Source of the DNA: a virus
Taxonomy: Duplodnaviria > Caudoviricetes
Strand: one strand, 5' to 3'
Length of the DNA stretch: 38,977 nucleotides
IMG/VR virus record: IMGVR_UViG_3300016474_000552
Location: 1 to 38,977 of that record
The notes under the pieces are model-generated. The model had not been told where the DNA came from and searched no databases. It worked only from the letters and a program-made list of their open reading frames with translations. The translations under genes and the position numbers were made by a program. Positions 14,184 to 38,975 of the stretch are shown here, piece by piece (position 1 is the first letter of the stretch; every line of letters begins with the position of its first letter).

Positions 14184-14831
14184 ATGCGCCCCGGCTTCAT
14201 CAACAGCTTCCAGCCTTCTCGCGACCCCGTCGTGCAGCCCATCCCGCTGCCGTCGGACTACTGGCACGTCAGCAACGCCAACTACTCGGCGTCGGCGTTC
14301 CTGCCGCAGCAGTCCTACCCGTTCACGGGTGTTGGCTCTTGGAACCTGAACACAAGCAATCTGCTCTACGCGGTTCCGTTTTTCGTCGGACGGGCGGGGC
14401 GAACGGTGACGGCGCTCGGCGCACGCTGGGTGTCGGCCCCGACCGTGGGCGCGATCTTGAAGATCGGCATCTACGACGTGCTCCCAGCGTCGGCGCACAA
14501 CGTCTACCCGCAGAACCTCGTCGCCAGCGTGGAGTTCGCGTTGACCGGCTCGACGGGCGTTCAGACCGGCGCACTGGCGTCGTCCGTCAACCTGCCGAAC
14601 GGCTTGTATTGGATCGCGTTCGCCCGCCGGTCGGGGTCTTCCGGCTCCATTCGCGCCATCAACAGCCTCGGCGCCAACCAGATGGCGGGACGCAACCCCC
14701 TCCAGTGGACCGGCGCGACGCTGAACTCCTACCTGCAAGTCGCGCTGCCTGACGCCTCGGCGCTCCCTGCGACGTTCGCTGCCAGCGCGACGATTCAATC
14801 CGGCAACCCGCCGCTTCTTGAGGTGCTGTGA
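14184..14831 (+). CDS. Putative beta-rich virion protein, paralogue 1 of 3
   Basis: Shares DYWH, PFFVG, KIGIYD, YP.NL and LPATF motifs with the next two ORFs. Confidence 0.7.
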   Translation: MRPGFINSFQPSRDPVVQPIPLPSDYWHVSNANYSASAFLPQQSYPFTGVGSWNLNTSNLLYAVPFFVGRAGRTVTALGARWVSAPTVGAILKIGIYDVLPASAHNVYPQNLVASVEFALTGSTGVQTGALASSVNLPNGLYWIAFARRSGSSGSIRAINSLGANQMAGRNPLQWTGATLNSYLQVALPDASALPATFAASATIQSGNPPLLEVL

Positions 14832-15769
14832 TGACGCAACCGTGGGACTACTGGCACGTCGCAGGCGGCGGCGGACTGACCGTCTACAACACGCGAGAAC
14901 TGGTCGAGAGCGCGGGCATCATCGGCCCTGGAGGCGCTGTCAACTACGCGCTGCACATGCTTTCGGCGCGACCGTTCTTTGTGGGAGACGAAGGCGTCAC
15001 GGTCGCAGCCGTCAGCGTCAATCTGGACTCGTCGACGACTCCCGGCACCTGTCGTTTTGGCATCTATGCCTGCCCGCCGCCCTCGGCGCACGACATGTAC
15101 CCAGCGCAGCTTCTTGCGGACTTTGGCGAACTGACGCTCACGGGGTCGTTCCGTCCCTCGCTCGCCGTCACGCCGCTCACGCTCGACCCCGGCTTCTACT
15201 ACCTCGCCACGATCTTCAGCAATGCGTCGCCAACCCTGCTCACAGCCGGGTACGGACAAGCACAACTCGGAGGCCCCGGCTTCCCGCTGGGCTACTCGCC
15301 TGCAAACGGCGTCGGGTTCATCGGATTCTCGGTGTATCGGCCTTACGGTGCGCTGCCGTCGACCTTCCCGGCGCTTGTGGCAGGCAGCTTTGGCTTCGTA
15401 CCGGCGTCCGTTCCACCTTTCAGCAACAACATACAAATCTACGTCGAGTGCGAGGCTTCCGTCACGGGCACGTTCCAAGTGAACTGGGGTCGCGACGTCG
15501 CGCTGCCCACCAACAGCGCCACGGTGACAGCAGAAACAGCATCCTCTGTCACCATTCGATACGGCACGGACACGTCGCCAGCGACCTTTGCGGCGGCGCT
15601 GCAAACGCAGTCGGCGAACGTCAAGACGGCGATAAGCGTCGGTTCGCCTGCGAACTTTCCCAACAGCGGCCCTTGGACCATCAATCTCCAGAACGCCGGG
15701 CCTTTGCAGAACTCGGCAGGCAACGTCGCGCAGTATCTCCCCATCACGGCGATTGCCGTCCAGCTCTGA
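14831..15769 (+). CDS. Putative beta-rich virion protein, paralogue 2 of 3 (extra C-terminal domain)
   Basis: QPWDYWH, PFFVG, RFGIY, MYPAQLLADFG, LPSTFPA. Confidence 0.7.
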   Translation: MTQPWDYWHVAGGGGLTVYNTRELVESAGIIGPGGAVNYALHMLSARPFFVGDEGVTVAAVSVNLDSSTTPGTCRFGIYACPPPSAHDMYPAQLLADFGELTLTGSFRPSLAVTPLTLDPGFYYLATIFSNASPTLLTAGYGQAQLGGPGFPLGYSPANGVGFIGFSVYRPYGALPSTFPALVAGSFGFVPASVPPFSNNIQIYVECEASVTGTFQVNWGRDVALPTNSATVTAETASSVTIRYGTDTSPATFAAALQTQSANVKTAISVGSPANFPNSGPWTINLQNAGPLQNSAGNVAQYLPITAIAVQL

Positions 15770-15778
15770 GAGGTCGCC

Positions 15779-16405
15779 GTGGTCCAGCCTTTCGACTACA
15801 TACACAATCCCGGTTTGGTCGACCCGCGTACAGCAGCGCCGTACCTGACCCTGCAAAACTACGCAGCCCGCCCTGATAACACGTCTGGAAACCCGTCGTC
15901 GCTGATCAACACGCTGCTCGCGCAGCCGTTTTGGACCGGCGACGAGTCGCTGTCGATCACGGCGCTTGGAATCAACTGCCTGAGCACAGGCACGGCGACG
16001 TTGCGGATCGCGGTGTACGACGTGCCGTCGACACGCAACCTCTATCCCGGCAACCTGCTGCACGACTTCGGCGTCGTCGACTACACGGCGACGGGCGTTC
16101 GCTTGGCGTCGTTGAGTGTAACGCTGCCCGCCAACCAGATGTTCTGGATCGTGACGAACACGCCGGGAGGCACGGGGCAACACGCAAGCGTCGTGTCGTC
16201 GAACGAGATCACGCTACCGTCTGGTCCCTTGGGCACTGTCGTATCATCACCCACGTCCGTATCGAATCAAGCAGCCCTCGGCCTGTTCGTTGCCTCGACC
16301 TACGTCGCCCCGCCGACTCCGATGCCCGCGACGTTCCCCGCAGGAGCGGCCACGCGCAATAACCAGTTCGGCGTGTACCCGGCCATCGTCATCGTACCCG
16401 CTTGA
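15779..16405 (+). CDS. Putative beta-rich virion protein, paralogue 3 of 3
   Basis: QPFDYIH, PFWTG, RIAVYD, LYPGNLLHDFG, MPATFPA. Confidence 0.7.
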   Translation: MVQPFDYIHNPGLVDPRTAAPYLTLQNYAARPDNTSGNPSSLINTLLAQPFWTGDESLSITALGINCLSTGTATLRIAVYDVPSTRNLYPGNLLHDFGVVDYTATGVRLASLSVTLPANQMFWIVTNTPGGTGQHASVVSSNEITLPSGPLGTVVSSPTSVSNQAALGLFVASTYVAPPTPMPATFPAGAATRNNQFGVYPAIVIVPA

Positions 16406-23071: not shown

Positions 23072-23734
23072 ATGACCATCGCCGCTCTTCTGTCGTTCAT
23101 CGCCGCAGGCGAGGGCGGCTACAACTCGATGAACCAGGGCACGCAGGGCGGGCGCATCGTTGGCAGCACGCACAACGCGGCGTCCGTCCTCGGCAAAAAC
23201 CTCACCGACATGAGCATCGGCGAGGTCATGGGGCACCAAAACTCCAGCCCGCGCCGGCTGTTCGCGGCGGGGCGGTATCAGATCATCCCCGACACGCTCA
23301 AGGGCATCTTGCCGTCGAGCGGCCTGACGGCGCGTGACCCCTTCAGCCCGCAGAACCAAGACCGCTTGGGCCTCGCGCTCATTCAGCGCCGGAAGCCGGC
23401 GTGGGACTACCTCACCGGCAAGAGCACCAACCGCGACGCGGCGCTCCTGTCGCTCGCGCAGGAGTGGGCGAGCCTGCCCGACCCCCGCACGGGAAACTCG
23501 TTCTACGGCAGTGGCAACCGCGCCCAGCACACCGTCGCCCAAGTCGCTGCCGCCTTGGATGCAGCGCGAACGTCCCTGAGCGCACCGGCCCAGCCCCCGA
23601 CTCCAGGTGCGAAGACCTCGAGCTCGGGCTCGACGTCGTCGACCTCCCCCTCGGAAAAGGGGTCGGCGTCCCTGTTGGTGCCGCTCCTTCTCGTCGGGGG
23701 CCTCGCCTTTGCGCTCTGGCGCCTTCGCCGCTAG
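23072..23734 (+). CDS. Lambda-lysozyme-like muramidase/lytic transglycosylase with C-terminal membrane anchor
   Basis: Catalytic AGEGGY, AAGRYQI, FSPQNQD, LAQEWASLP; S/T/P linker and TM LLVPLLLVGGLAFALWRLRR. Confidence 0.85.
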   Translation: MTIAALLSFIAAGEGGYNSMNQGTQGGRIVGSTHNAASVLGKNLTDMSIGEVMGHQNSSPRRLFAAGRYQIIPDTLKGILPSSGLTARDPFSPQNQDRLGLALIQRRKPAWDYLTGKSTNRDAALLSLAQEWASLPDPRTGNSFYGSGNRAQHTVAQVAAALDAARTSLSAPAQPPTPGAKTSSSGSTSSTSPSEKGSASLLVPLLLVGGLAFALWRLRR

Positions 23735-23931
23735 TCGCAGACACACTCGTCGTGGGGGCTCAAGCACTCGACGCAGAGGTCGAGGCGCACGACGTCGTCG
23801 ACCTTCGGAAGACGTGCGATCCCGACCACGTCTGCACGGGGCCTCGCCAGCTCGACTTTGACCCACGAGGGCGCGAGGGCCTCCTCGAAGAAGGCGGCAA
23901 AGGGTCGGCGAACGGCTTCGAGCGAGGTCAT
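23731..23931 (-). CDS. Small Cys-containing hypothetical protein
   Basis: Fills the gap on the minus strand; CVEC...CVC; TAGGAT 8 nt upstream of ATG. Confidence 0.5.
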   Translation of the reverse strand: MTSLEAVRRPFAAFFEEALAPSWVKVELARPRADVVGIARLPKVDDVVRLDLCVECLSPHDECVCD

Positions 23932-23979: not shown

Positions 23980-24258
23980 ATGAAAACTCATCGCCGTTCA
24001 CGCCGTCGCCGAAAAAACCCCCTGGGTCCGCTCACGGGTCGACCCGTCCTCGCCGGCGTGCTGGCGTGGCTCACGGTCGGCGCGGTTGGCACGGCGGTGG
24101 CGGTTCCCTTGCTGACGTCCCGCGCAAAGCAGCTCCCGCCGACGCCCTCACAGACGGACTTGGCTCCCATCAAGGCGTTCGCGCAGTCGCTGCACACTGT
24201 CATCGTCGTCGGCCAAGTGGTCGGGGCGATTGCAGCATACCGTGCTGCGAAGGTCTGA
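23980..24258 (+). CDS. Small membrane protein with basic N-terminus ending in RKNP
   Basis: MKTHRRSRRRRKNP followed by two hydrophobic segments. Confidence 0.7.
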   Translation: MKTHRRSRRRRKNPLGPLTGRPVLAGVLAWLTVGAVGTAVAVPLLTSRAKQLPPTPSQTDLAPIKAFAQSLHTVIVVGQVVGAIAAYRAAKV

Positions 24259-24267
24259 GCTGACGTC

Positions 24268-26397
24268 GTGACGTACTGGAAGCTCGAGCGCCCGTCGAAG
24301 CGCAGCGGAAAGAAGTGGAAGGTCCGCGTGCCCACCAGCTCGGGGCGCGGCAAGACCGTGGCCTTCGGCGATGCGACGATGAGCGACTACACGATCCACA
24401 AGGACAAGGCTCGGCGTGAGCGATACCGCACACGCCACCAGCACGATCGCATCGACGATCCCTACGCCCCCGGCTTCTGGTCGTGGTGGTCCCTCTGGGG
24501 TGAGTCGAGCGACCTCGCCAAGGCGCACGCCGACGCCGTGAAGCGAGCGAAGAAGATTCTCGGTGTGAAAAAAGACACAGAAGGAAACGAAATGGCGACG
24601 AAAGAGCCCCGCAGGAACCCGAATCCGCCAGGAACACCCACCCCCACGATGGCCGAAGTCGCCGAGGTCATCACCGTCCTCGACGTGCCGAAGCACCTCC
24701 GCGCCGAGTTCTTGAAGGGCTTTGCGACTGAGTGGGAACACGCACACACGGTCGGCTACGACCACGTCATGGTCGGCAGCATCGTCCTCGACCACCTCGC
24801 CGAGGACGCCCACTACTACCGGAAGCTCCGACGAGCTCGTCTGAACCCTGCCGCCAGCGACACCGCCCCGTCGAACCGCGTGCAGGCGTGCTTCGACGCG
24901 CTGCTCTCCAACGTCCAAGAGCAGTACCCCTCGCTCTCTTGCACCATCGAAGTCGACGAAACCGCCGGCGAGCGTGACGGGAAGGCGTGTTCCCGCGCCT
25001 TCGCCTTCTGCGAGGACCACGGCGAGGGCGGGGCCTTCCGCATCGCCATCGCAGGGAAGCTGAACGACCCGGACATCGCCGACGACAGCCGGGTCGACGG
25101 CATCCTGCGGCACGAGCTGGCGCACGCCGTTCTGCTCCACGGTGGCGACATCGAGCACACCGAGCGGGACGCCGACGAGGTCGCCGAGGCCCTCTTCGGT
25201 TCGCCCATCTTCTACGACGAGGACGACGTCCAGACGACCGACCCGAGCGCCCCCGGCGCCCGCCGCCCGCGCCCCGAGTATCTGGACGATGAGAATGGGC
25301 GCACTCTGGACACCCCAAAAGCGAACCCCTACCCTACGGGCACTATGCACCAGCTCCACACGGTCGAAGACGTCGCTTCCTGCCTCGATGACTGCGCCGC
25401 CCAGGGCGACGCCAAGACCCCGCGCATGCTCGCGAGCCAGCTCTCGCAGCAGGCGAAGCAGGTCGCTGGTGCCCAGTCGCGCATGCTCCTCACCCTCGCG
25501 AAGGCCGCACGGCACTGCGCGGGCGCCATCGAGGCCCGCCTCGCCGGCGAAGTCGACCGTGCGATGGTGGGCGAGCGCATGTGCGAACGCGCCCTCGCCG
25601 ACGCGCAGTCGCCCAGCCGCACGAACCCCGAGTGGGCGAAGAAGCTCGGCAGTGGCCTCTACAAGGGCACCCGCTACGCCGGCGAGACGGCCCGCGACCT
25701 CTACCAGGGCGCCCGCGAAGCGCACGCCACGCACGGCGCCGAGGCCCCCGCCGAGCGGAAGAACCCACGGCGCCCCCGCTTCGAGCAGTACGACTTCCGC
25801 GTGTCGAAGTCGTTCCTCCCCGCGTTGTTCAACGGTGACACGTCGGGTCTTTCCTCCGAGGACGAGGCCGCTCTTGATCGCTTTCTCGCGAGGGTGATGA
25901 AGCTGGGTCGTGGTCACTGGGCTGAGATCGAAGAGGACGCGGGCTTCGGCAAGGACGAGATCACGGGACTGGGCTCTGACCGCGCCCTCGTCGCTTGGAT
26001 GACCGAGCGGAAGAACCCACGTCGGCGTGCGAGTGAATCCCGTAAGGCATGGGAAGCACGCGGCGCGGCCATCCCGGCGAGTGATCTTGTTGCCGCAGAC
26101 GTATTCCGCACGCACGAGCAGCGCGCCCTTGCTCGGGCCACGCACACGCACCGCCTCCCCGACATCGGTCGCCTCACGATCACGCCCGACCCCAAGGGCG
26201 TCCGTGACCACGCCAGCGTCGAGGTGACGAAGGCGTTCGCCGACCAGTGGGACCACGGTGACGGACGCTCCTACCTTGCACAGGACGTCATGGACGCCGC
26301 TGAGAAGCACCGGGGCGACTCCAACTTCTACGCCGTCGCGCTCAAGTACCGAGGCCGGGAGTTCTCGAAGCTCTACCCCCGTGGCGCCGGGGTCTGA
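24268..26397 (+). CDS. Modular polyvalent protein/polyprotein: DUF5754-like, DUF5661-like, HExxH metallopeptidase-like, helical, DUF6926-like and unknown modules separated by NP motifs
   Basis: KKW...GKTVAFG..MSDYTIHKD..RRERYRTRH...PGFWS; GFATEWEH...IVLDHLAEDAHYYRKL; LRHELAHA...ERDAD; ALFNGDTSGLSSEDEAALD. Confidence 0.8.
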   Translation: MTYWKLERPSKRSGKKWKVRVPTSSGRGKTVAFGDATMSDYTIHKDKARRERYRTRHQHDRIDDPYAPGFWSWWSLWGESSDLAKAHADAVKRAKKILGVKKDTEGNEMATKEPRRNPNPPGTPTPTMAEVAEVITVLDVPKHLRAEFLKGFATEWEHAHTVGYDHVMVGSIVLDHLAEDAHYYRKLRRARLNPAASDTAPSNRVQACFDALLSNVQEQYPSLSCTIEVDETAGERDGKACSRAFAFCEDHGEGGAFRIAIAGKLNDPDIADDSRVDGILRHELAHAVLLHGGDIEHTERDADEVAEALFGSPIFYDEDDVQTTDPSAPGARRPRPEYLDDENGRTLDTPKANPYPTGTMHQLHTVEDVASCLDDCAAQGDAKTPRMLASQLSQQAKQVAGAQSRMLLTLAKAARHCAGAIEARLAGEVDRAMVGERMCERALADAQSPSRTNPEWAKKLGSGLYKGTRYAGETARDLYQGAREAHATHGAEAPAERKNPRRPRFEQYDFRVSKSFLPALFNGDTSGLSSEDEAALDRFLARVMKLGRGHWAEIEEDAGFGKDEITGLGSDRALVAWMTERKNPRRRASESRKAWEARGAAIPASDLVAADVFRTHEQRALARATHTHRLPDIGRLTITPDPKGVRDHASVEVTKAFADQWDHGDGRSYLAQDVMDAAEKHRGDSNFYAVALKYRGREFSKLYPRGAGV
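25751..26021 (+). repeat. Exact 19-bp direct repeat ccgagcggaagaacccacg at 25751-25769 and 26003-26021
   Basis: Read directly; both copies encode ERKNPR, 252 bp apart and in frame. Confidence 0.95.
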
Positions 26398-26398
26398 C

Positions 26399-26686
26399 GT
26401 GGCGTCGACGTGGCTCGCTCCTCGAAAGCCCAAGCGACTTGAGCACACCACCTCGGTGGCGTGCCCCCGCAAGGGCCCGCTGCCTGTCGAGATCAGCTTG
26501 TTGATCTGCTCGAGGATGAACGAAGCCGCGCCCGAAAGGTGCGCGGCTTGTTCGTGCCGAAAGGCTCAGGTTTTCGCGAAGCAGATCGACGACCTCAAGA
26601 TGACGTCGCACTTCGGTGCGCTCATGCGAGCCTCGGACCTCCCGTTGGCGTCGACGTCGACGGACTCTGCTCCAGAGCTGCAATAA
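26399..26686 (+). CDS. Small Cys-rich hypothetical protein
   Basis: GTG directly after the polyprotein stop; C...C...CAACSC; overlaps the patatin 3' end convergently. Confidence 0.45.
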   Translation: MASTWLAPRKPKRLEHTTSVACPRKGPLPVEISLLICSRMNEAAPERCAACSCRKAQVFAKQIDDLKMTSHFGALMRASDLPLASTSTDSAPELQ

Positions 26687-27572: not shown

Positions 27573-28208
27573 ATGAAGACTTGGCAGTGGCTTGCTCTCG
27601 GTGGCGCGGCGGCGTTCTTCCTCTTGCGAAGGGGTGGGGGCGCCGGCTCCCGAAGCATCACGAGCGGCAAAGACTTCTTCCAGCTCGCCCAGGGCGACCC
27701 GCGCTGGGCGTCCATGCTCGTGGGTTTCTCGACGAAGCCTGAGAGCTCAATGGCGAATGTGGGCTGCTTCTTCACGTCGCTCGTCGCCACGCGAAACATG
27801 CTCTTGGGCGGGTCGATGCTGCCTCCCGAAGCGATGCAGCTCGCGAAGCGTGCGGAAGCCTTCCAGAACGACCTGCTCATCCTGTCCAAGGCGGCTCAAG
27901 CCCTCGGCGTCTCAGCGCCTGAGAGCGAGCGCATCCGAGCAAACGAAGAACCCGTCGAGAAGCTCCGTGCGAAGGCCGATGACATCCTGCGTCGAAACGG
28001 CATCGTGATCTTCAACGTGGGTTACAACTCGACGGCTCCCCGTCACTTCCTCATCTGCAACCGGCGCAGCGCCAACGGCTATGAGTGCATGGACGTCGCG
28101 GGGACGAAGCCCCACTTCATGACGCTCGACCCCACGTCTCTCCAAGGCCAGCGCACCGCGTCGAAGCGATACATCGCCGTCGGCGTCGCCGGCGTCTTCA
28201 GGAAGTAG
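27573..28208 (+). CDS. C39-like (papain-fold) cysteine peptidase with N-terminal membrane anchor
   Basis: Q.DPRW...GCFFTSL (catalytic Cys), HFLI (His), MD; N-terminal TM WQWLALGGAAAFFLL. Confidence 0.75.
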   Translation: MKTWQWLALGGAAAFFLLRRGGGAGSRSITSGKDFFQLAQGDPRWASMLVGFSTKPESSMANVGCFFTSLVATRNMLLGGSMLPPEAMQLAKRAEAFQNDLLILSKAAQALGVSAPESERIRANEEPVEKLRAKADDILRRNGIVIFNVGYNSTAPRHFLICNRRSANGYECMDVAGTKPHFMTLDPTSLQGQRTASKRYIAVGVAGVFRK

Positions 28209-29370: not shown

Positions 29371-29831
29371 GGCTCTCCAAGAACTTCACCCTCGTCGAAA
29401 TGACCCGCAGCGAGGCCGCGACTCGCGGTGGCTTCGACAACACGCCGCCGCCCGACGCCGTCGAGAACCTGCGGGCGCTCTGCGAGAAGGTCTTGCAGCC
29501 CCTCCGCGATGCGATGGGTCGACCGATGCGCGTCAACAGTGCGTACCGAGGCCCCGACGCGAACCGCGCTGTCGGCGGGAGTCGGACGAGCCAGCACATG
29601 ACCGGCGAAGCCGCCGACATCGAGTTTGACGGCTTCGATAACACCCAGCTCGCGCAGAAGATCGTGGACATGAAGCTGCCTTTCGACCAGTTGATCTTGG
29701 AAGGACACAAGTTCGGTGACCCCAATAGCGGTTGGGTTCACGTCAGTCACAAGCGAGGCGGGCCGCAGAGGGGTCAGGTTTTGACTGCGACCTTCGTGCA
29801 AGGCAAAGTTACCTATACACAAGGCATATAA
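29367..29831 (+). CDS. Peptidase M15A (Peptidase_M15_3) endolysin
   Basis: LSKNFTL.EM..S, SAYR...N.AVGG...SQH..GEAADI, WVHVS zinc ligands. Confidence 0.92.
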   Translation: MRLSKNFTLVEMTRSEAATRGGFDNTPPPDAVENLRALCEKVLQPLRDAMGRPMRVNSAYRGPDANRAVGGSRTSQHMTGEAADIEFDGFDNTQLAQKIVDMKLPFDQLILEGHKFGDPNSGWVHVSHKRGGPQRGQVLTATFVQGKVTYTQGI

Positions 29832-30538
29832 TGCGATCTTCTGGTATTTACGCCATAGAGTGTGTTCACACCGGAGAACGCTACGTCGGCAGCGCCGTCA
29901 ATGTTGCTAGACGATGGGAACGCCATCGTTGCGAGTTGAAGAAACGCAGGCACCATTCATGGAAACTTCAACGGGCATGGAACAAGCACGGAGAAGAAGC
30001 GTTTCGTTTTATCATTCTAGAAGCCGTAAATGAAAAAACTTCTCTACTACCCGCAGAGCAGCGACACCTAGACGAGAGCATCCGAGCAGGCAAGTCGCTG
30101 AACGTGTTGCCGACCGCAGGATCTCCGCTCGGCGCGAGGCAGACGCCCGAGTCCTGCGCCAAGAGAGCGCAAACCCTAAGGGGGCATTACGTCTCAGAAG
30201 AAACGAAGCTGAAAATAAGTACGAAAGCGAAGGGTAGAAAAGTCTCAGAAGAAACAAGAAAGCGCATGAGCGAAGCCAAGAAAAACGCAAAAAGATCTGA
30301 AAAAGCGATAAAAACACAGATGGTTCCGATCAAAAGATTGTGTCCTGAGAGCGGAGAAGTGGTTGAGTACCAATCCATAAAGTCAGTAAAAGCCCACGGT
30401 TTCACACCCTCTTGCGTGAGCGGGGTTTTAGCGGGGAGGCTTGCACATCATCGTGGGTTTTTATGGCAATATGCGACCGAAAAAAGAGGGTGGTCGTACC
30501 GACACACTCGTAAGACTGAAAAGGGTATTTCTGAATGA
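29831..30538 (+). CDS. Free-standing GIY-YIG homing endonuclease with NUMOD3 repeats
   Basis: GIYAI...YVGSA...R...H; SEETKLKIS and SEETRKRMSEA; markedly AT-richer than flanks. Confidence 0.92.
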   Translation: MRSSGIYAIECVHTGERYVGSAVNVARRWERHRCELKKRRHHSWKLQRAWNKHGEEAFRFIILEAVNEKTSLLPAEQRHLDESIRAGKSLNVLPTAGSPLGARQTPESCAKRAQTLRGHYVSEETKLKISTKAKGRKVSEETRKRMSEAKKNAKRSEKAIKTQMVPIKRLCPESGEVVEYQSIKSVKAHGFTPSCVSGVLAGRLAHHRGFLWQYATEKRGWSYRHTRKTEKGISE

Positions 30539-33871: not shown

Positions 33872-34678
33872 ATGAACACGCTCGTCCAGATCACCTACGG
33901 CGTCCGCAAGCACCCTGACCACGACGGCTGGCTCCCCGTCGTCACCGAGCACGTTGAGGGCAGCAAGCCGCACGTCAGCGCCCCGTGGGGCCGGCCCCTC
34001 GACGAGGACCACGCCCTCTTTCTGGCGAAGGACACCGCCGAGAACTGGGCGTCGCGGTACAGCGGCGACTTCACGGTGGTCGTGTCCGAGGCAGCCCCCG
34101 AGGCAGCCCCCGAGCGCGGGCCCCGTCGAAACCCCCTCACGCTCGTCGAAGAGCTGGACGCCCTCGCGGCGAGGTTCGCCGACCTCGACGAGGACGAGCT
34201 CATCGAGACGAACATTCACAGCGCCTTGAGTCCAATCCTACAACGCCACCTGGGTTACTCGCTCGGCCCGTCGGCTGACTGGGTGAACCCGACGTGGGAA
34301 CTCGGCGGCGACCTCTATCTCTTTGAGAACGATGCCGATGGCGAGTACGTCGTCCTGCGACGTGACGCTGATTCCGACGAGATCGAAATGGTCAAGGAGA
34401 TACGCGACCTTGACGCCCTGCGCCGGTACTTCCGCATGCGCCGAAACCCCCGCCGCAAGGCACCCCCGCCGTCGCCGCCCCCGCCGTCGCACACCTTCGC
34501 GCTCGAAGCCTCGGCGGTGCAGCAGGGCCTCTTCGCGCCGTCGTCCTACGAGGCGAAGCCGAAGAAGCGTACCGTCGAACCCATGTTCGTCGACGAGCGT
34601 CAGGTCGACTTGTTCGCGCCGCCGCCCCCTCCGGCGAAGAAGAACCCGCGTCACGCGCCCCCTCGGCGGCGCCGATGA
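33872..34678 (+). CDS. Modular protein with three RRNP/KKNP motifs and two QxxLF motifs
   Basis: GPRRNPL, MRRNPRR, AKKNPRH; QQGLF and QVDLF. Confidence 0.7.
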   Translation: MNTLVQITYGVRKHPDHDGWLPVVTEHVEGSKPHVSAPWGRPLDEDHALFLAKDTAENWASRYSGDFTVVVSEAAPEAAPERGPRRNPLTLVEELDALAARFADLDEDELIETNIHSALSPILQRHLGYSLGPSADWVNPTWELGGDLYLFENDADGEYVVLRRDADSDEIEMVKEIRDLDALRRYFRMRRNPRRKAPPPSPPPPSHTFALEASAVQQGLFAPSSYEAKPKKRTVEPMFVDERQVDLFAPPPPPAKKNPRHAPPRRRR

Positions 34679-35574
34679 AACGCCTCCGCGAAAACAAGGC
34701 CAGTCAGAGCTTCATCCGTCGCACGCCCTCCCGCGACGGCTCGAAGCGTCGCTTCCGGTACACCTACGACCCCGACCTCGCCACGCGAGTGAACGTGAAG
34801 GCGAAGGTCAAGGAAAAACTCCGCATCCCGCACGCCGGCTCCCCCGGCCACTACGAGGTGGTCGCTCGCCTCGCTCCCAACGTCGTCGGCGTCATCCACG
34901 ACGAAACCAAGCACGCGATGGCGATCTCCGACCTCGCCTTGCGCGAGCTCGCCCGAGACGTCTACCGCCCCGCCAAAGACGCCACTCCCTCCGAAGACGT
35001 CCGCTACCGCCACGAGCGTGAGGACGCCCTCCCCCGCTCCCGCGACGACGCCTATCAAGCCATCATCGAAGCGTCGGGCATCAAAGACCACGACTTCGCC
35101 CGCGCCGACGCCGCCTATCGCAAGTGGAAGGCGGGCAAGGGCAAGCGCCGGGTCAAGCCCCCGCCCCTCACGGGTGGCCAGCTCGACGCCTTCGAGGGCG
35201 ACCGCAGAGGACGCCACTTCACGTCCCTCTTGGAAGCCTTCGAGCACGCGACGCGAGGGGCCCGCACTTGGCGCGACCTCGAGCCGGCGCTCGCCCTCCT
35301 GCGTGACGTCCCCGGCTTCCGAAAAGCACGCTTCCCCGACGAGGTCTACGAGCGGCACAACCGCCACGAGGCCGAGCTGGAAGAGCAGGGCTACACGATC
35401 GACGTCGACCTCTACGGTGTCACCATGACGCCCGACATGGACGTGAACGAGGCCGTGTTCCTCGCCTCGACGATGGACCCGCCGCGCCTCTGGGAGCCCC
35501 TCTCCGAGGAAGACGTGGCGCGGGCCGCTCGTGAGGAAGAGGGCATGTACGAGGAAGAAGACGCATGGACGTGA
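34675..35574 (+). CDS. Hypothetical protein
   Basis: ATGA overlap; basic N-terminus FIRRTP...RFRYTY; acidic tail. Confidence 0.7.
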   Translation: MKRLRENKASQSFIRRTPSRDGSKRRFRYTYDPDLATRVNVKAKVKEKLRIPHAGSPGHYEVVARLAPNVVGVIHDETKHAMAISDLALRELARDVYRPAKDATPSEDVRYRHEREDALPRSRDDAYQAIIEASGIKDHDFARADAAYRKWKAGKGKRRVKPPPLTGGQLDAFEGDRRGRHFTSLLEAFEHATRGARTWRDLEPALALLRDVPGFRKARFPDEVYERHNRHEAELEEQGYTIDVDLYGVTMTPDMDVNEAVFLASTMDPPRLWEPLSEEDVARAAREEEGMYEEEDAWT

Positions 35575-36632
35575 AGATCGCGGGCCTCTTCGCCGGCATC
35601 GGCGGGCTTGACTCTGGCGTTGCTGAAGGACTCGAAGACCAAGGCTTCGACGTCGAACACGTCGCCCTCGTCGAGCGCGAGCCCTTCCCTCGGCGCGTCC
35701 TCGCGGCGCGCTTCCCCGGCGTGCCCGTCTTCGATGATGTTCGCGAGGTACACGGCGACGACCTCGACGACGTCGACGTCCTCGTCGGGGGTTTTCCTTG
35801 TCAGGACGTAAGCGGGGCCAAGAAGGACGCCGAGGGGCTCGCCGGCAAGCGCAGCGGCCTGTGGAGCGAGCAGATCCGCATCATCCGTGAAGCACGCCCC
35901 CTCTTCGCCGTCGTCGAGAACGTCGAGGCGCTCCTGCGTCGCGGCCTGTGGAAGGTGCTCGCCGACCTCTCCGAGGCTGGCTACGTCGCTCAGTACGACG
36001 TCCTCACCGCGCATGCCGTCGGAGCCCCGCACCAGCGCGAGCGTGTCTTCGTGCTCGCCCAGCGGCTCGACGTCTTCGCCTACCTCGGCGGGCGCCTGGC
36101 GCGCTTCCAGCCGCATGACACGGGCTCGTGGGCGTCGGCGTGGCCCTACCCGTGGGCCGACGCTCGTGCGCCCGTCGTGGCCCCGGTGAAGGCACTCGGC
36201 AACGCCGTCGTGCCAGCGATGGCGGCGGTCGTGGGTCGGGGCATCGGCGCCCTGCTCACGCAGGACGAGAGCGCGACGGTCGCCTGCCCACACGGCTCGG
36301 GGCGCCCGCTCGATCAGAACGCCCGCATGCCCAGGGCGGGGTGCGTGGGCGCCGACGGGTTGTTGCACGCTCTGCCGTCGGTGACGAAGCGTGCGACGGC
36401 GCGTGGAGGCTTCGACGAGCTCGAGCTGACCGGGACACGCGAGGACCGCACCCGCGAGCTGGCGGCGCGCATCGCGGCGCGGCGCCTGCCGACGCCGACG
36501 GCGACCGACTGGAAGGGCGGCGGGGTCGGGGGCGCGTGGCACCGCAACCTGAAGCAGGGCCTCGGCGGTATGCCCTCGCCGGCCTTCCTCGAGTGGGTGA
36601 TGGGCTTCCCTATCGGGTGGACGGACGTCTAG
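35565..36632 (+). CDS. dcm: DNA cytosine-C5 methyltransferase (permuted C-terminus)
   Basis: LFAGIGG, GFPCQD, ENV, PHQRERVF, ALGNAVVP, then LPTP.A.DWKG...WVMGFPIGWT. Confidence 0.9.
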   Translation: MDVKIAGLFAGIGGLDSGVAEGLEDQGFDVEHVALVEREPFPRRVLAARFPGVPVFDDVREVHGDDLDDVDVLVGGFPCQDVSGAKKDAEGLAGKRSGLWSEQIRIIREARPLFAVVENVEALLRRGLWKVLADLSEAGYVAQYDVLTAHAVGAPHQRERVFVLAQRLDVFAYLGGRLARFQPHDTGSWASAWPYPWADARAPVVAPVKALGNAVVPAMAAVVGRGIGALLTQDESATVACPHGSGRPLDQNARMPRAGCVGADGLLHALPSVTKRATARGGFDELELTGTREDRTRELAARIAARRLPTPTATDWKGGGVGGAWHRNLKQGLGGMPSPAFLEWVMGFPIGWTDV

Positions 36633-36721: not shown

Positions 36722-36999
36722 CGGGCGCCCCCGTCCTCGTAGGACGTCACGTCCGCGCTTCCACGCGCCCCACCCTCCGCACGAGCACGGATGGGCGCGT
36801 GGAGGCGTAGGCGCCGCAGGACGCACTCTTCGCGCTCCTCGGGGCTCCGCATCGCGGCGTACTCGCGAGCCCAGCCCAGGCCGAGCTGGGCTTCGAGCAG
36901 GCGCGCCGTCGAGGGCGGGATCGTGCCTTCGGCGGCGTCGGTGACGAGCCGCTCAAGCAGGGCGAGCAGAAACTTCCGGTCGGGGGTGAGCCAGTTCAT
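36718..36999 (-). CDS. Hypothetical protein
   Basis: GGAG RBS; ATGA overlap with the methyltransferase stop. Confidence 0.6.
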   Translation of the reverse strand: MNWLTPDRKFLLALLERLVTDAAEGTIPPSTARLLEAQLGLGWAREYAAMRSPEEREECVLRRLRLHAPIRARAEGGARGSADVTSYEDGGAR

Positions 37000-38351
37000 G
37001 TGTTCTCCTGCGCCGCGACATACGCCGCGATGCGCCGTCCGATCCATCGCATGACGGGCACGGCCATGCTGTTGCCGAGAGCCTTGTACCGTGGGCCGTC
37101 GGGGCAGTCGACCGCCGGCTTGCCCTTCCACGGGATGAGCGTCCAGTCGTCGGGGAAGCCCTGCAGCCGCTCACATTCTCGCGGCGTCAGGCGACGCACG
37201 ACCATGCGTGGGTGTGCGCCCGCGAGTACGGCGGGCGAAGTGGCGAGCGGGGTTTCCGGTCCTTCGTCCCCCGGCGCGTAGCCGAGCTGGTCGGCGTCGG
37301 GGTAGCAGTAGGCGGGCGGGTCGTCGGCGGCGCCCTCTTTGACGACGTGCGGCACGACGTGCGGCACGCCGTGCGGCACGACGTTGCGCGTGCGGAAGTT
37401 GTGGCTCCCTTCCTGCGTGTACGTCTTCGCCTCGTTCGACGTGAGCGGGTCGGCGACCTCTTGCGGCCACGGGAAGCTGCCCTGCGCCGGCTCACGCGAC
37501 GGCGCGACGACGCCAAGCTGACCCCCGCCATTGTGGTTGAGCGTGCCGATGATCTCGTGCGTGATCTCAGGAACAACGCCGGCTCTCATTCCTCGCTCGG
37601 GTCGTCCTGCTCCTCGTCCTCGTCCGCGCCCACGTCCGTGTTCGCCACCACGCTCCTCAACGCCGACTCCAGAAGCGGCGGCAGGGTTTTGCCGCGCTTC
37701 GCGGCTCGGCGCAGAATCCCGGCGCACGCCTTCCCACTCAAGAAGTACCTGCGAGGGATCGAACCCGTCTCGAGCACTTGAGACAACGAACACACGCTGG
37801 CGTCGTTGGGCCAAGCCGTGGTATTGGGCGTCTTGGACCCGCCACGCGATTGCTCTTTGGGGTCCAAGCACAACACCAGCGTGCGTCCATTTTCCCCCTG
37901 GCGGTTCCAACGGCACATCTTCGCCGGAAAGACCTCCGATAAGATTTCCGAATGCGTTGGTTTTGTCGGAGAAGATTCCAAGCACGTTTTCGTATACGCA
38001 AATGACAGGGGGTTTTCCCGATCGAAGTCGTAGTCGGTCGGCATGGTCGATGATCCTTGCGTATGTGAGTGTCAGATTGCCACGCTCGTCGTCGAGGCCC
38101 TTGCGAAGCCCCGCGATAGAAAAACTCTGACAAGGAGGCCCGCCGACAATGATGTCGGCCTCCTCAAAAACTCTTTCCGGCCAGCGCAGGAACTCGCTGA
38201 TGTCCCCGTAGTTCGGAACTTGAGGGTGACGGTAGGCGAGAACTGCCGAAGGAAACGCCTCTATTTCAGCAACCCCGACGCACTCAAAACCAAGCGGGTG
38301 CCAAGCAGCAGACGCGGCTTCTATTCCGCTGCACAACGACAAGAACTTCAT
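36996..38351 (-). CDS. dcm: DNA cytosine-C5 methyltransferase (alpha-type polypeptide)
   Basis: LSLCSGIEA, GPPCQSFS, ENV, QRRQRVF, RRLTPRECERLQGFPD, YKALGNSMAVP. Confidence 0.92.
   Translation of the reverse strand: MKFLSLCSGIEAASAAWHPLGFECVGVAEIEAFPSAVLAYRHPQVPNYGDISEFLRWPERVFEEADIIVGGPPCQSFSIAGLRKGLDDERGNLTLTYARIIDHADRLRLRSGKPPVICVYENVLGIFSDKTNAFGNLIGGLSGEDVPLEPPGGKWTHAGVVLGPQRAIAWRVQDAQYHGLAQRRQRVFVVSSARDGFDPSQVLLEWEGVRRDSAPSREARQNPAAASGVGVEERGGEHGRGRGRGRGAGRPERGMRAGVVPEITHEIIGTLNHNGGGQLGVVAPSREPAQGSFPWPQEVADPLTSNEAKTYTQEGSHNFRTRNVVPHGVPHVVPHVVKEGAADDPPAYCYPDADQLGYAPGDEGPETPLATSPAVLAGAHPRMVVRRLTPRECERLQGFPDDWTLIPWKGKPAVDCPDGPRYKALGNSMAVPVMRWIGRRIAAYVAAQENT
37586..38044 (-). CDS. Nested alternative-frame ORF, M.EcoHK31I beta-polypeptide-like
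   Basis: SLSQVLE...RYFLSGKACAGILRRAAKRGKTLPPLLESAL in a second frame inside the methyltransferase gene; exact start uncertain. Confidence 0.75.
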   Translation of the reverse strand: MPTDYDFDRENPLSFAYTKTCLESSPTKPTHSEILSEVFPAKMCRWNRQGENGRTLVLCLDPKEQSRGGSKTPNTTAWPNDASVCSLSQVLETGSIPRRYFLSGKACAGILRRAAKRGKTLPPLLESALRSVVANTDVGADEDEEQDDPSEE

Positions 38352-38743
38352 CTGAACCCCATGTATTTCATGGCGGCATCGCGCCATTCAGGATCGTCCC
38401 ACCCGCCTAAACGAATGTTGCAGCGATGGCAGAGTAGTCCACGGACCTTGCCGGTTTCGTGAGAGTGATCGATGTGGAACTTGATCAGATTGACGGCGCA
38501 GATGGCGCAACAACCGTTTTGATCCGCCAGCATGCTCTGGACGATCGCCGGCGTGATGCCGTAACGAGTCTTCACCTGCCATTTGCGCTTCTGTTCAGGG
38601 CTGTAGTTACGAACCCGACTTTCTCGCTGCTTCTGATTCGCGCAGAGTTTGCAGTAAGAATGACGACCCAGCGGCCCGCTCGGCTGGCGGTGAAAATCAT
38701 CTAATGGTTTTGTTTTTCGACACACCGGGCAGGTTTTGCTCAC
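38348..38743 (-). CDS. Endonuclease VII-type (HNH) homing endonuclease
   Basis: GGAG RBS before GTG38743; CPVC..CKLC zinc finger, YGIT...Q.G.CAIC...IDHSHETGKVRGLLCHRCN. Confidence 0.9.
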   Translation of the reverse strand: MSKTCPVCRKTKPLDDFHRQPSGPLGRHSYCKLCANQKQRESRVRNYSPEQKRKWQVKTRYGITPAIVQSMLADQNGCCAICAVNLIKFHIDHSHETGKVRGLLCHRCNIRLGGWDDPEWRDAAMKYMGFR

Positions 38744-38877
38744 AGTCCGCTCCACACGAAGACGCACCGTAGGTGAAGAGCACAGGAGAGGAAATCGCAG
38801 CCGACGGCCTCCCAGCCGAGAGGCTCCCACGCGACCGACGCAGCCTCGATGCCTGAACAGACGGAGAGATACTTCAC
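38740..38877 (-). pseudogene. Stranded original 5' end of the C5 methyltransferase (45 codons)
   Basis: Translates MKYLSVCSGIEAASVAWEPLGWEAVG..., matching MKFLSLCSGIEAASAAWHPLGFECVG at 38351. Confidence 0.85.
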
Positions 38878-38975
38878 CGATACCTCGTGAGGCGCCCCTC
38901 GGCGTCCTCGGCGGCACGCAGCATGTCAGCGGCGTGGTGGAACAAAAGGGCGGCGCCGTGGGCGTCGTCGCACGT
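38874..38975 (-). CDS. 3' end of a hypothetical gene entering from the right edge (partial)
   Basis: Open frame TCDDAHGAALLFHHAADMLRAAEDAEGRLTRYR*, with stop overlapping GTG38877. Confidence 0.55.
   Translation of the reverse strand, partial: TCDDAHGAALLFHHAADMLRAAEDAEGRLTRYR

Follow-up and report, generated by a model that had tools for sequence, protein, structure and literature searches.

The window, that is, the whole 38,977-nucleotide stretch of viral DNA analyzed here (G000 in genome comparisons), is a phage fragment, 68% complete by CheckV, with genes for PolA, a helicase, an integrase, ArdA, methylases and an anchored lysozyme. On its plus strand, an open frame at 24268..26397 encodes a 709-aa protein, which homologues, motif counts and AlphaFold describe as a polyprotein of seven modules in the order C-D-B-F-A-E-G. 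Short basic-Asn-Pro sites lie between the modules, and the motif recurs in an upstream gene and in a second polyprotein:

23980..24258, plus strand: small protein upstream of the polyprotein, containing a hydrophobic stretch; its basic leader ends in RKNP (24010-24021)
24268..24573, plus strand: module C, DUF5754 (Pfam), basic; mostly stand-alone in other viruses
24580..24594, plus strand: AAGGA and an in-frame ATG (Met109), immediately 5' of site 1
24610..24627, plus strand: site 1, RRNP-NP; kept in 40/40 close homologues; pLDDT<50 at 114-122
24628..24837, plus strand: module D, DUF5661 (Pfam)
24838..24849, plus strand: site 2, RLNP; kept in 29/40; pLDDT<50 at 192-196
24862..25308, plus strand: module B, minimal gluzincin by profile and fold (HELAH at 282-286, Glu299)
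25318..25329, plus strand: site 3, KANP; kept in 21/41; pLDDT<50 at 355-361
25330..25617, plus strand: module F, helical, no family (profile search, AlphaFold)
25618..25629, plus strand: site 4, RTNP; kept in 41/41 close homologues
25630..25755, plus strand: module A, 46 aa (EWAKKLG...), the most frequent module (48 copies in 55 proteins)
25756..25767, plus strand: site 5, RKNP; kept in 39/41 close homologues
25768..26007, plus strand: module E, weak DUF6926 likeness; optional, movable
26008..26019, plus strand: site 6, RKNP; kept in 18/32 close homologues
26020..26397, plus strand: module G, alpha/beta, no family (profile search, AlphaFold)
33872..34678, plus strand: second RxNP polyprotein; three sites (34124, 34439, 34637) followed by an Arg-rich tail

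Searching for homologues gave 55 proteins, the query's own record included, and several of them are 61-81% identical to the 709-aa ORF end to end; the ORF is therefore not the product of an assembly join. Scanning viral contigs with a single protein or with the family alignment gave no close relative of the polyprotein, a scan of genome contigs gave distant DUF5754 matches only, and none of the 26 stretches that matched a DNA pattern for module A came from the polyprotein family. No cultured phage matched the 709-aa ORF. The 14 metagenome loci were read to 10 kb on each side, a reach that leaves the capsid block of this clade outside view.

We then counted the motif. A preliminary description of this DNA had noted NP preceded by basic residues at six places in the ORF, and all six are where it put them: NP occurs seven times at six sites, site 1 being NPNP, with the site Asn at residues 117, 193, 353, 453, 499 and 583 (nucleotides 24616, 24844, 25324, 25624, 25762 and 26014). 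Shuffling the ORF 100,000 times gave a mean of 0.10 [RK]xNP and never reached the six observed. Across the 55 family proteins, Arg stands at -2 of 275 of the 325 NP and Lys at 19; the 275 RxNP compare with 4.0 in shuffles, a count over related sequences and hence not one of independent events. The basic-NP motif first described is thus recurrent and enriched, and we sharpen it here: the true motif is R-x-N-P, and the KANP of the window is a minor form. Sites 1, 4 and 5 bear out its expected conservation in relatives, and the partial retention of sites 2, 3 and 6 listed above indicates that any cutting there would not be obligatory.

The matches to DUF5754 (residues 8-57, E 4e-14) and DUF5661 (residues 148-189, E 3e-7) both pass the Pfam cut-off. 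In 80 fetched viral loci, DUF5754 was mostly a stand-alone gene of ~100 aa, as had been expected of a small viral protein, and RxNP was absent from 79 of the 80 DUF5754 ORFs; an unrelated polyprotein (L103), in turn, has DUF5661 with an RRNP on either side. The AAGGA and Met109 ahead of site 1 are possibly an internal start or the leftover of a gene fusion, and relatives without module C start MAPKKNP.

Module B combines HExxH with a downstream Glu, as zincins do, and its catalytic residues are near-invariant among members. At E<=0.01 the HExxH module was matched as SprT-like in 20 of 36 members. Its predicted model has a pLDDT of 94.8, and the best fold match is abylysin (4jiu; rmsd 2.9, 95 aligned) with a Z of 8.7, barely over the level that the fold-search tool terms common. 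Foldseek gave nothing for module B at E<=0.001, and PPEP chains are not among the matches listed in either fold search, which excludes nothing. The module often exists alone as a gene of ~130 aa; stand-alone DUF5754 and HExxH genes are about module length and mostly without the motif. A stand-alone HExxH gene adjoins an integrase at L209:2212-2544, L162:14118-14504, L186:4893-5156 and L182:3032-3466, and anti-repressor peptidase genes also lie beside integrase genes.

The DUF6926 match of module E (E 0.012) is under the cut-off, and an Atlas search with module G returned nothing. Among the module labels first proposed, DUF5754 and DUF5661 hold by Pfam and the HExxH peptidase-like label by its gluzincin fold, and DUF6926 is a hint only. 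The ORF joins two or more unrelated domains in one mobile-element chain. The AlphaFold model of the whole protein has a pTM of 0.32, and the seven modules appear to be domains that fold independently of each other.

Next, we investigated whether the sites fall between modules, as the preliminary description held. When the 55 proteins were split at NP, the resulting fragments clustered into 38 classes in many orders, with modules inserted, dropped, doubled or moved. Such clustering presupposes the motif, and the boundaries were therefore retested independently of it. We aligned 178 stretches that came from 154 distant proteins; 3, 5, 0, 3, 3 and 3 of them cross sites 1-6. Within modules the counts rise to as many as 75 in C, 65 in B and 12 in D or E, and distant relatives of modules F and G are nearly absent. 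Close homologues differ by 304 insertions of at least 40 aa; in 111 of these an NP lies within 10 aa of each end, compared with 11.5 at random and a maximum of 21 in 1000 randomizations. One end lies near an NP in 255 of the 304. In 193 insertions the motif is missing from at least one end; we inspected 25 of these, most of them partial alignments in which the paired modules were not homologous. In 13 motif-bearing proteins, no site falls within any of the 25 Pfam stretches. In the AlphaFold model, pLDDT falls below 50 at residues 114-122, 192-196, 355-361, 450-510 and 547-616, and all six sites are inside or within 2 residues of these segments, the last two of which are long and also span module A and part of E. 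AlphaFold parsing, alignments and insertions thus all bear out the claim, with the six sites at low-confidence linkers and not inside folded domains. Overall, R-x-N-P marks the joints of independently folding modules in viral polyproteins, one short motif being common to unrelated precursors at domain or propeptide borders.

R-x-N-P is a signal used across the whole virus group, beyond the 709-aa ORF. The RKNP leader of the small gene at 23980 is kept in four relatives (L092, L093, L097 and L098), and the motif is present in all 33 members of the family of the polyprotein at 33872, at 84 sites compared with 3.3 in shuffles. A zinc-finger module opens with the same junction in both polyprotein families (P0010, P0212). 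Further polyproteins of close relatives hold ADP-ribosyltransferase, ParB, PcfJ, GNAT, NUDIX and Zeta domains between sites; the effector domains ART-PolyVal, ddrB-ParB and GNAT were found in motif-bearing relatives, and in the 709-aa ORF only the zincin. Leaders at the N terminus contain 31 of 560 sites and 20 stand ahead of short tails that are mostly Arg-rich; the net charge around sites is raised essentially at -2 and -1 alone.

To place the motif in the wider group, we reached whole records through an HExxH profile search of viral contigs and then a protease profile search, giving a first set of 14 records and 17 further ones, 7 of them read whole. Genes of relatives come from a simple codon-model caller. 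The records were taken in 20-kb pieces, and a gene spanning two of them appears truncated. Basic-NP was enriched 1.8- to 6.5-fold in G001-G007, G011 and G012, the excess in G011 being weak (22 vs 12.5), as it was in G014. We observed no enrichment in G008, G009, G013 (11 vs 9.8), G015 or four giant-virus loci. Among the added records, G022, G024, G025, G027 and G028 were enriched, and G020 and G031 were not.

The motif-rich records that we read share a block in which an Arg/Lys-rich protein, ending in hydrophobic segments, is followed by two adjacent capsid-like genes of ~220 aa. In 10/10 related records checked that have a basic tract, the protein 5' of the capsid-like gene has an Arg/Lys tract that contains 4-31 Asn and hardly any Asp, Glu or Gln. 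Asn recurs through the tract, the next residue being Arg, Gly, Pro or Ala, and the residues enriched after Asn are Pro (144 vs 27) and Gly (81 vs 40). Since Asn is constant in these core tracts and the following residue varies, RxNP is the form of this clade: we found RxNP in the window clade, xx[RK]NP in G004/G006 and basic-x-N-R/G/A in core proteins. The capsid-like protein of G022 (L241:18990-19679) starts MLRKNP.

One capsid-like gene of the relatives matches SPV1_VP4 at E 0.0016, under the cut-off, and the other has PM2 P2-like features at 0.76, a lead only; the two paralogues do not align in hhalign, and a relative's capsid-like protein had no match in cultured phages. These comparisons weakly suggest that the two adjacent genes encode single-jelly-roll capsid proteins, as would be expected of tailless viruses like Portogloboviridae or Halopanivirales. 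We saw no terminase or HK97-type capsid in these viruses. The Walker-A proteins listed for the closed genomes G004, G006 and G007 include none seen to resemble a packaging ATPase, by a Walker-A motif screen with Pfam run on three of the G007 proteins. The smallest closed genome with the motif, a capsid-like gene and a transglutaminase-like protein is L243 (G027; 16.7 kb, direct terminal repeats), in which we found no HExxH and no Walker-A protein.

G000 itself has a syntenic nuclease-helicase-SSB-PolA block common to G004, G006 and G013; the closest block belongs to G013, a genome without motif enrichment. Capsid profiles and the protease profile gave no match in this incomplete fragment. On the shared motif, module B and the replication block, G000 very probably belongs to the tailless group, whose hosts, judging from gene content, would be prokaryotic.

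We then asked which protease could read the motif. A transglutaminase-like protein with an invariant GDCDD and His, mostly with Asp, was present in 9/9 closed motif-enriched records (G004, G006, G007, G012, G014, G022, G025, G027 and G028), six of which had been selected through this very protein; the HExxH module was present in 6/9. By route of selection, the three records found via module B all have the transglutaminase-like protein, and 3/6 found via the latter have module B. Four closed records whose enrichment is not significant (G013, G015, G020 and G031) have the protein as well. It ends in a hydrophobic anchor in most members, and its nearest sequence match of solved structure is a weak one, PDB 4fgo (E 0.042), which we take to be LapG. 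The preliminary description had named three possible cutters, namely the internal HExxH module, a C39-like peptidase at 27573 and a protease outside the window. The last fits best, and the transglutaminase-like cysteine protease is, as predicted from sequence, the best candidate cutter. The C39-like protein was rejected, with no homologue in the related genomes compared and no copy between the flanking genes of the close relative L092. The HExxH module, first favored for its co-occurrence in the first 14 records, was overturned by the 17 further records. The whole-record search missed HExxH in G025 and G031, where hmmsearch later found it, and its other negatives are weak.

On our reading, R-x-N-P is probably the site that a virus-encoded maturation protease recognizes, likeliest the transglutaminase-like one. 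In a tailless virus with two jelly-roll-like capsid genes, precursors would be packed or condensed with the genome through their basic stretches, and the protease would cut next to Asn, the sole invariant residue across the group, during maturation. Cutting would chop the Arg/Lys-rich core protein and release small modules, DNA-binding ones and effectors, to be delivered into the host. A gene that gained the tag on both sides would become releasable cargo, which would explain the module shuffling. Cleavage or packaging is the role that best fits the sequences, in line with the preliminary description. That some viral protease, transglutaminase-like or module B, cuts R-x-N-P is probable, and the chance that the transglutaminase-like maturation protease of the group does so is about even. 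The fuller picture, in which tailless prokaryotic viruses forming a large uncultured group would mature like adenovirus, with an Asn-directed transglutaminase-like protease and one tag that condenses, loads and releases modules, has a somewhat less than even chance.

Module B is an unlikely cutter, whether of the polyprotein that contains it or in trans. It is the sole protease candidate within the 709-aa ORF, with the near-invariant catalytic residues described above and a gluzincin fold close to abylysin and selecase; it is present in G011, G012, G014 and G025, records found independently of it, and missing from the motif-poor G013, G015 and G020. However, three closed motif-bearing genomes (G022, G027 and G028) have no module B match and no credible HExxH protein, many RxNP polyproteins are without module B, and its gene is often beside an integrase, not structural genes. 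A metallopeptidase site with Asn-Pro does exist in PPEP-1, which cuts VNP↓PVP (PMC10413326). PPEP-1 needs Pro after NP, yet Pro follows NP at just 37/325 sites here, which argues against a PPEP-like module B.

Comparably unlikely is a docking or packaging tag that is never cut, in which a basic-Asn-Pro turn would bind DNA, capsid or membrane and load the intact chain. Consistent with such loading, the motif is found in leaders and basic core tracts, the Walker-A proteins listed for G004, G006 and G007 include no packaging-ATPase-like protein, and some polyvalent proteins travel uncut (PMC5512222). Nevertheless, one tag per chain would be enough, yet the motif stands at nearly every seam; the charge is raised essentially at two positions, and an invariant Asn with a variable next residue in core tracts is more like a protease subsite.

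The motif might also need no protease at all, the chain cleaving itself through Asn cyclization at Asn-Pro, which we consider quite improbable. The invariant Asn and its enriched followers, Pro and Gly, speak for this chemistry. FlhB/YscU (NPTH) and reovirus mu1 self-cleave at Asn-Pro type sites, and Pro and Gly after Asn favor Asn chemistry. To our knowledge, the described cases of Asn self-cleavage need a folded scaffold, whereas the sites here are in unrelated linkers that AlphaFold predicts to be poorly ordered.

Cutting by a host protease after entry is very improbable: no protease gene for the motif was seen in the 39-kb fragment, but the form of the motif drifts with virus clade, and the motif marks structural proteins, including the leader of the G022 capsid-like protein.

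A signal in DNA or at the ribosome, whether a recombination site, a skip or stall signal, or the scar of fused gene starts, is the least probable reading. In its favor, 19 nt around site 6 are identical to the DNA around site 5, a Shine-Dalgarno-like AAGGA and ATG precede site 1, and Met is somewhat commoner upstream of sites (131/529 vs 15%). Nonetheless, the Asn codon is AAC at 110/125 motif positions vs 3643/4119 elsewhere and the coding frame has 125 motif matches compared with 13-25 in the other frames; with background-like codons, free synonymous positions and a single frame, the motif is read as protein. Long DNA identities around sites are not commoner within genes (5/158) than between genes (8/327), and a conserved DNA site at cassette borders, as in integrons and shufflons, was not found. 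The motif also precedes tails of <10 residues, and at 2-6 residues from a start it would be too close for tunnel-based skipping.

Core polyproteins of ASFV and poxviruses mature comparably at a short motif. The adenovirus protease matures its substrates at (M/I/L)XGG↓X and (M/I/L)XGX↓G, and basic DNA-condensing precursors and other internal proteins share that short motif (PMC4246237), as the proteins here share R-x-N-P. Adenovirus, ASFV and poxviruses are eukaryotic viruses with Gly motifs and another protease family, whereas we infer prokaryotic hosts, a basic-x-Asn-Pro site and a transglutaminase-like candidate. T4 capsid-targeting sequences and the A-x-E prohead protease sites of T4, phiKZ and SPN3US likewise place a short motif behind the N-terminal leaders of unrelated head cargo, where a viral protease cuts (PMC5694885). 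The leaders here are similar; however, those are tailed phages whose Glu-specific sites are mainly in propeptides, and the motif here is Asn-centered and repeated between modules. The R-x-N-P consensus matches neither x-x-E nor GG↓X.

The architecture resembles the polyvalent proteins of phages and conjugative elements, for which processing into units, with a zincin as the cutter, has been proposed (Iyer et al., 2017; PMC5512222). Those chains also hold many unrelated small domains, including a zincin, near late genes, and the relatives here carry ART-PolyVal, ddrB-ParB, GNAT, NUDIX and Zeta. Unlike them, the proteins here have a fixed tetrapeptide at the seams, the cited passages of that paper naming no linker motif, and the zincin is dispensable in this virus group. 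LapG, of the BTLCP family, is a site-specific protease with a transglutaminase-like fold and a Cys-His-Asp triad, a cellular periplasmic enzyme that cuts Ala-Ala in one adhesin (PMC3032545); the viral proteins match its class weakly, and their activity is predicted. By analogy, the system may work like polyvalent proteins combined with T4 or adenovirus maturation, and would be an undescribed variant of motif-directed viral polyprotein processing, cleavage itself being a prediction. We found no paper in the open-access literature that describes the R-x-N-P motif, which subscription papers or supplements might; the main text of PMC5894146 does not contain 'protease', 'transglut' or 'polyprotein'.

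On the preferred reading of cutting by a viral protease, R-x-N-P would let the cut points of hundreds of unannotated viral proteins be read from sequence. The 38 module classes from one gene family, many of them without a Pfam family, would each be a candidate early effector against the host. The processing of polyvalent proteins, long proposed, becomes testable with synthetic genes and peptides. The analysis also names a candidate protease whose predicted specificity, for Asn-Pro, is unusual, and it suggests that virions of prokaryotic tailless viruses undergo motif-driven maturation. The fuller picture of adenovirus-like maturation, if true, would bring a new chemistry of site-specific proteolysis (basic-x-Asn-Pro) together with a plug-in cargo system, with dozens of interchangeable effector modules released and a protamine-like core protein chopped.

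Several other features of the window are worth recording. A small minus-strand gene with a Cys-rich tail (23731-23931) is 67-94% conserved just 5' of the polyprotein in most close relatives, and a Cys-rich plus-strand ORF directly 3' of it (~26399-26686) is kept in L092, L094-L097 and L100-L102. At 29732-30538 (plus), a GIY-YIG/NUMOD homing endonuclease gene lies in a low-GC stretch and is missing between the same flanking genes in L092. The plus-strand segment 30972-33849 holds the antirestriction gene for ArdA and a DUF6884 fusion of 703 aa; the fusion lacks the motif and matches part of a motif-bearing 2506-aa polyprotein in G005. On the minus strand, 36996-38917 holds a C5 methylase frame, split by the gene caller, beside an endonuclease VII gene and facing a second C5 methylase (35565-36632). 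Finally, three tandem paralogues at 14184-16405 (plus) match phrog_25864 and are likely beta-rich spike or vertex proteins.
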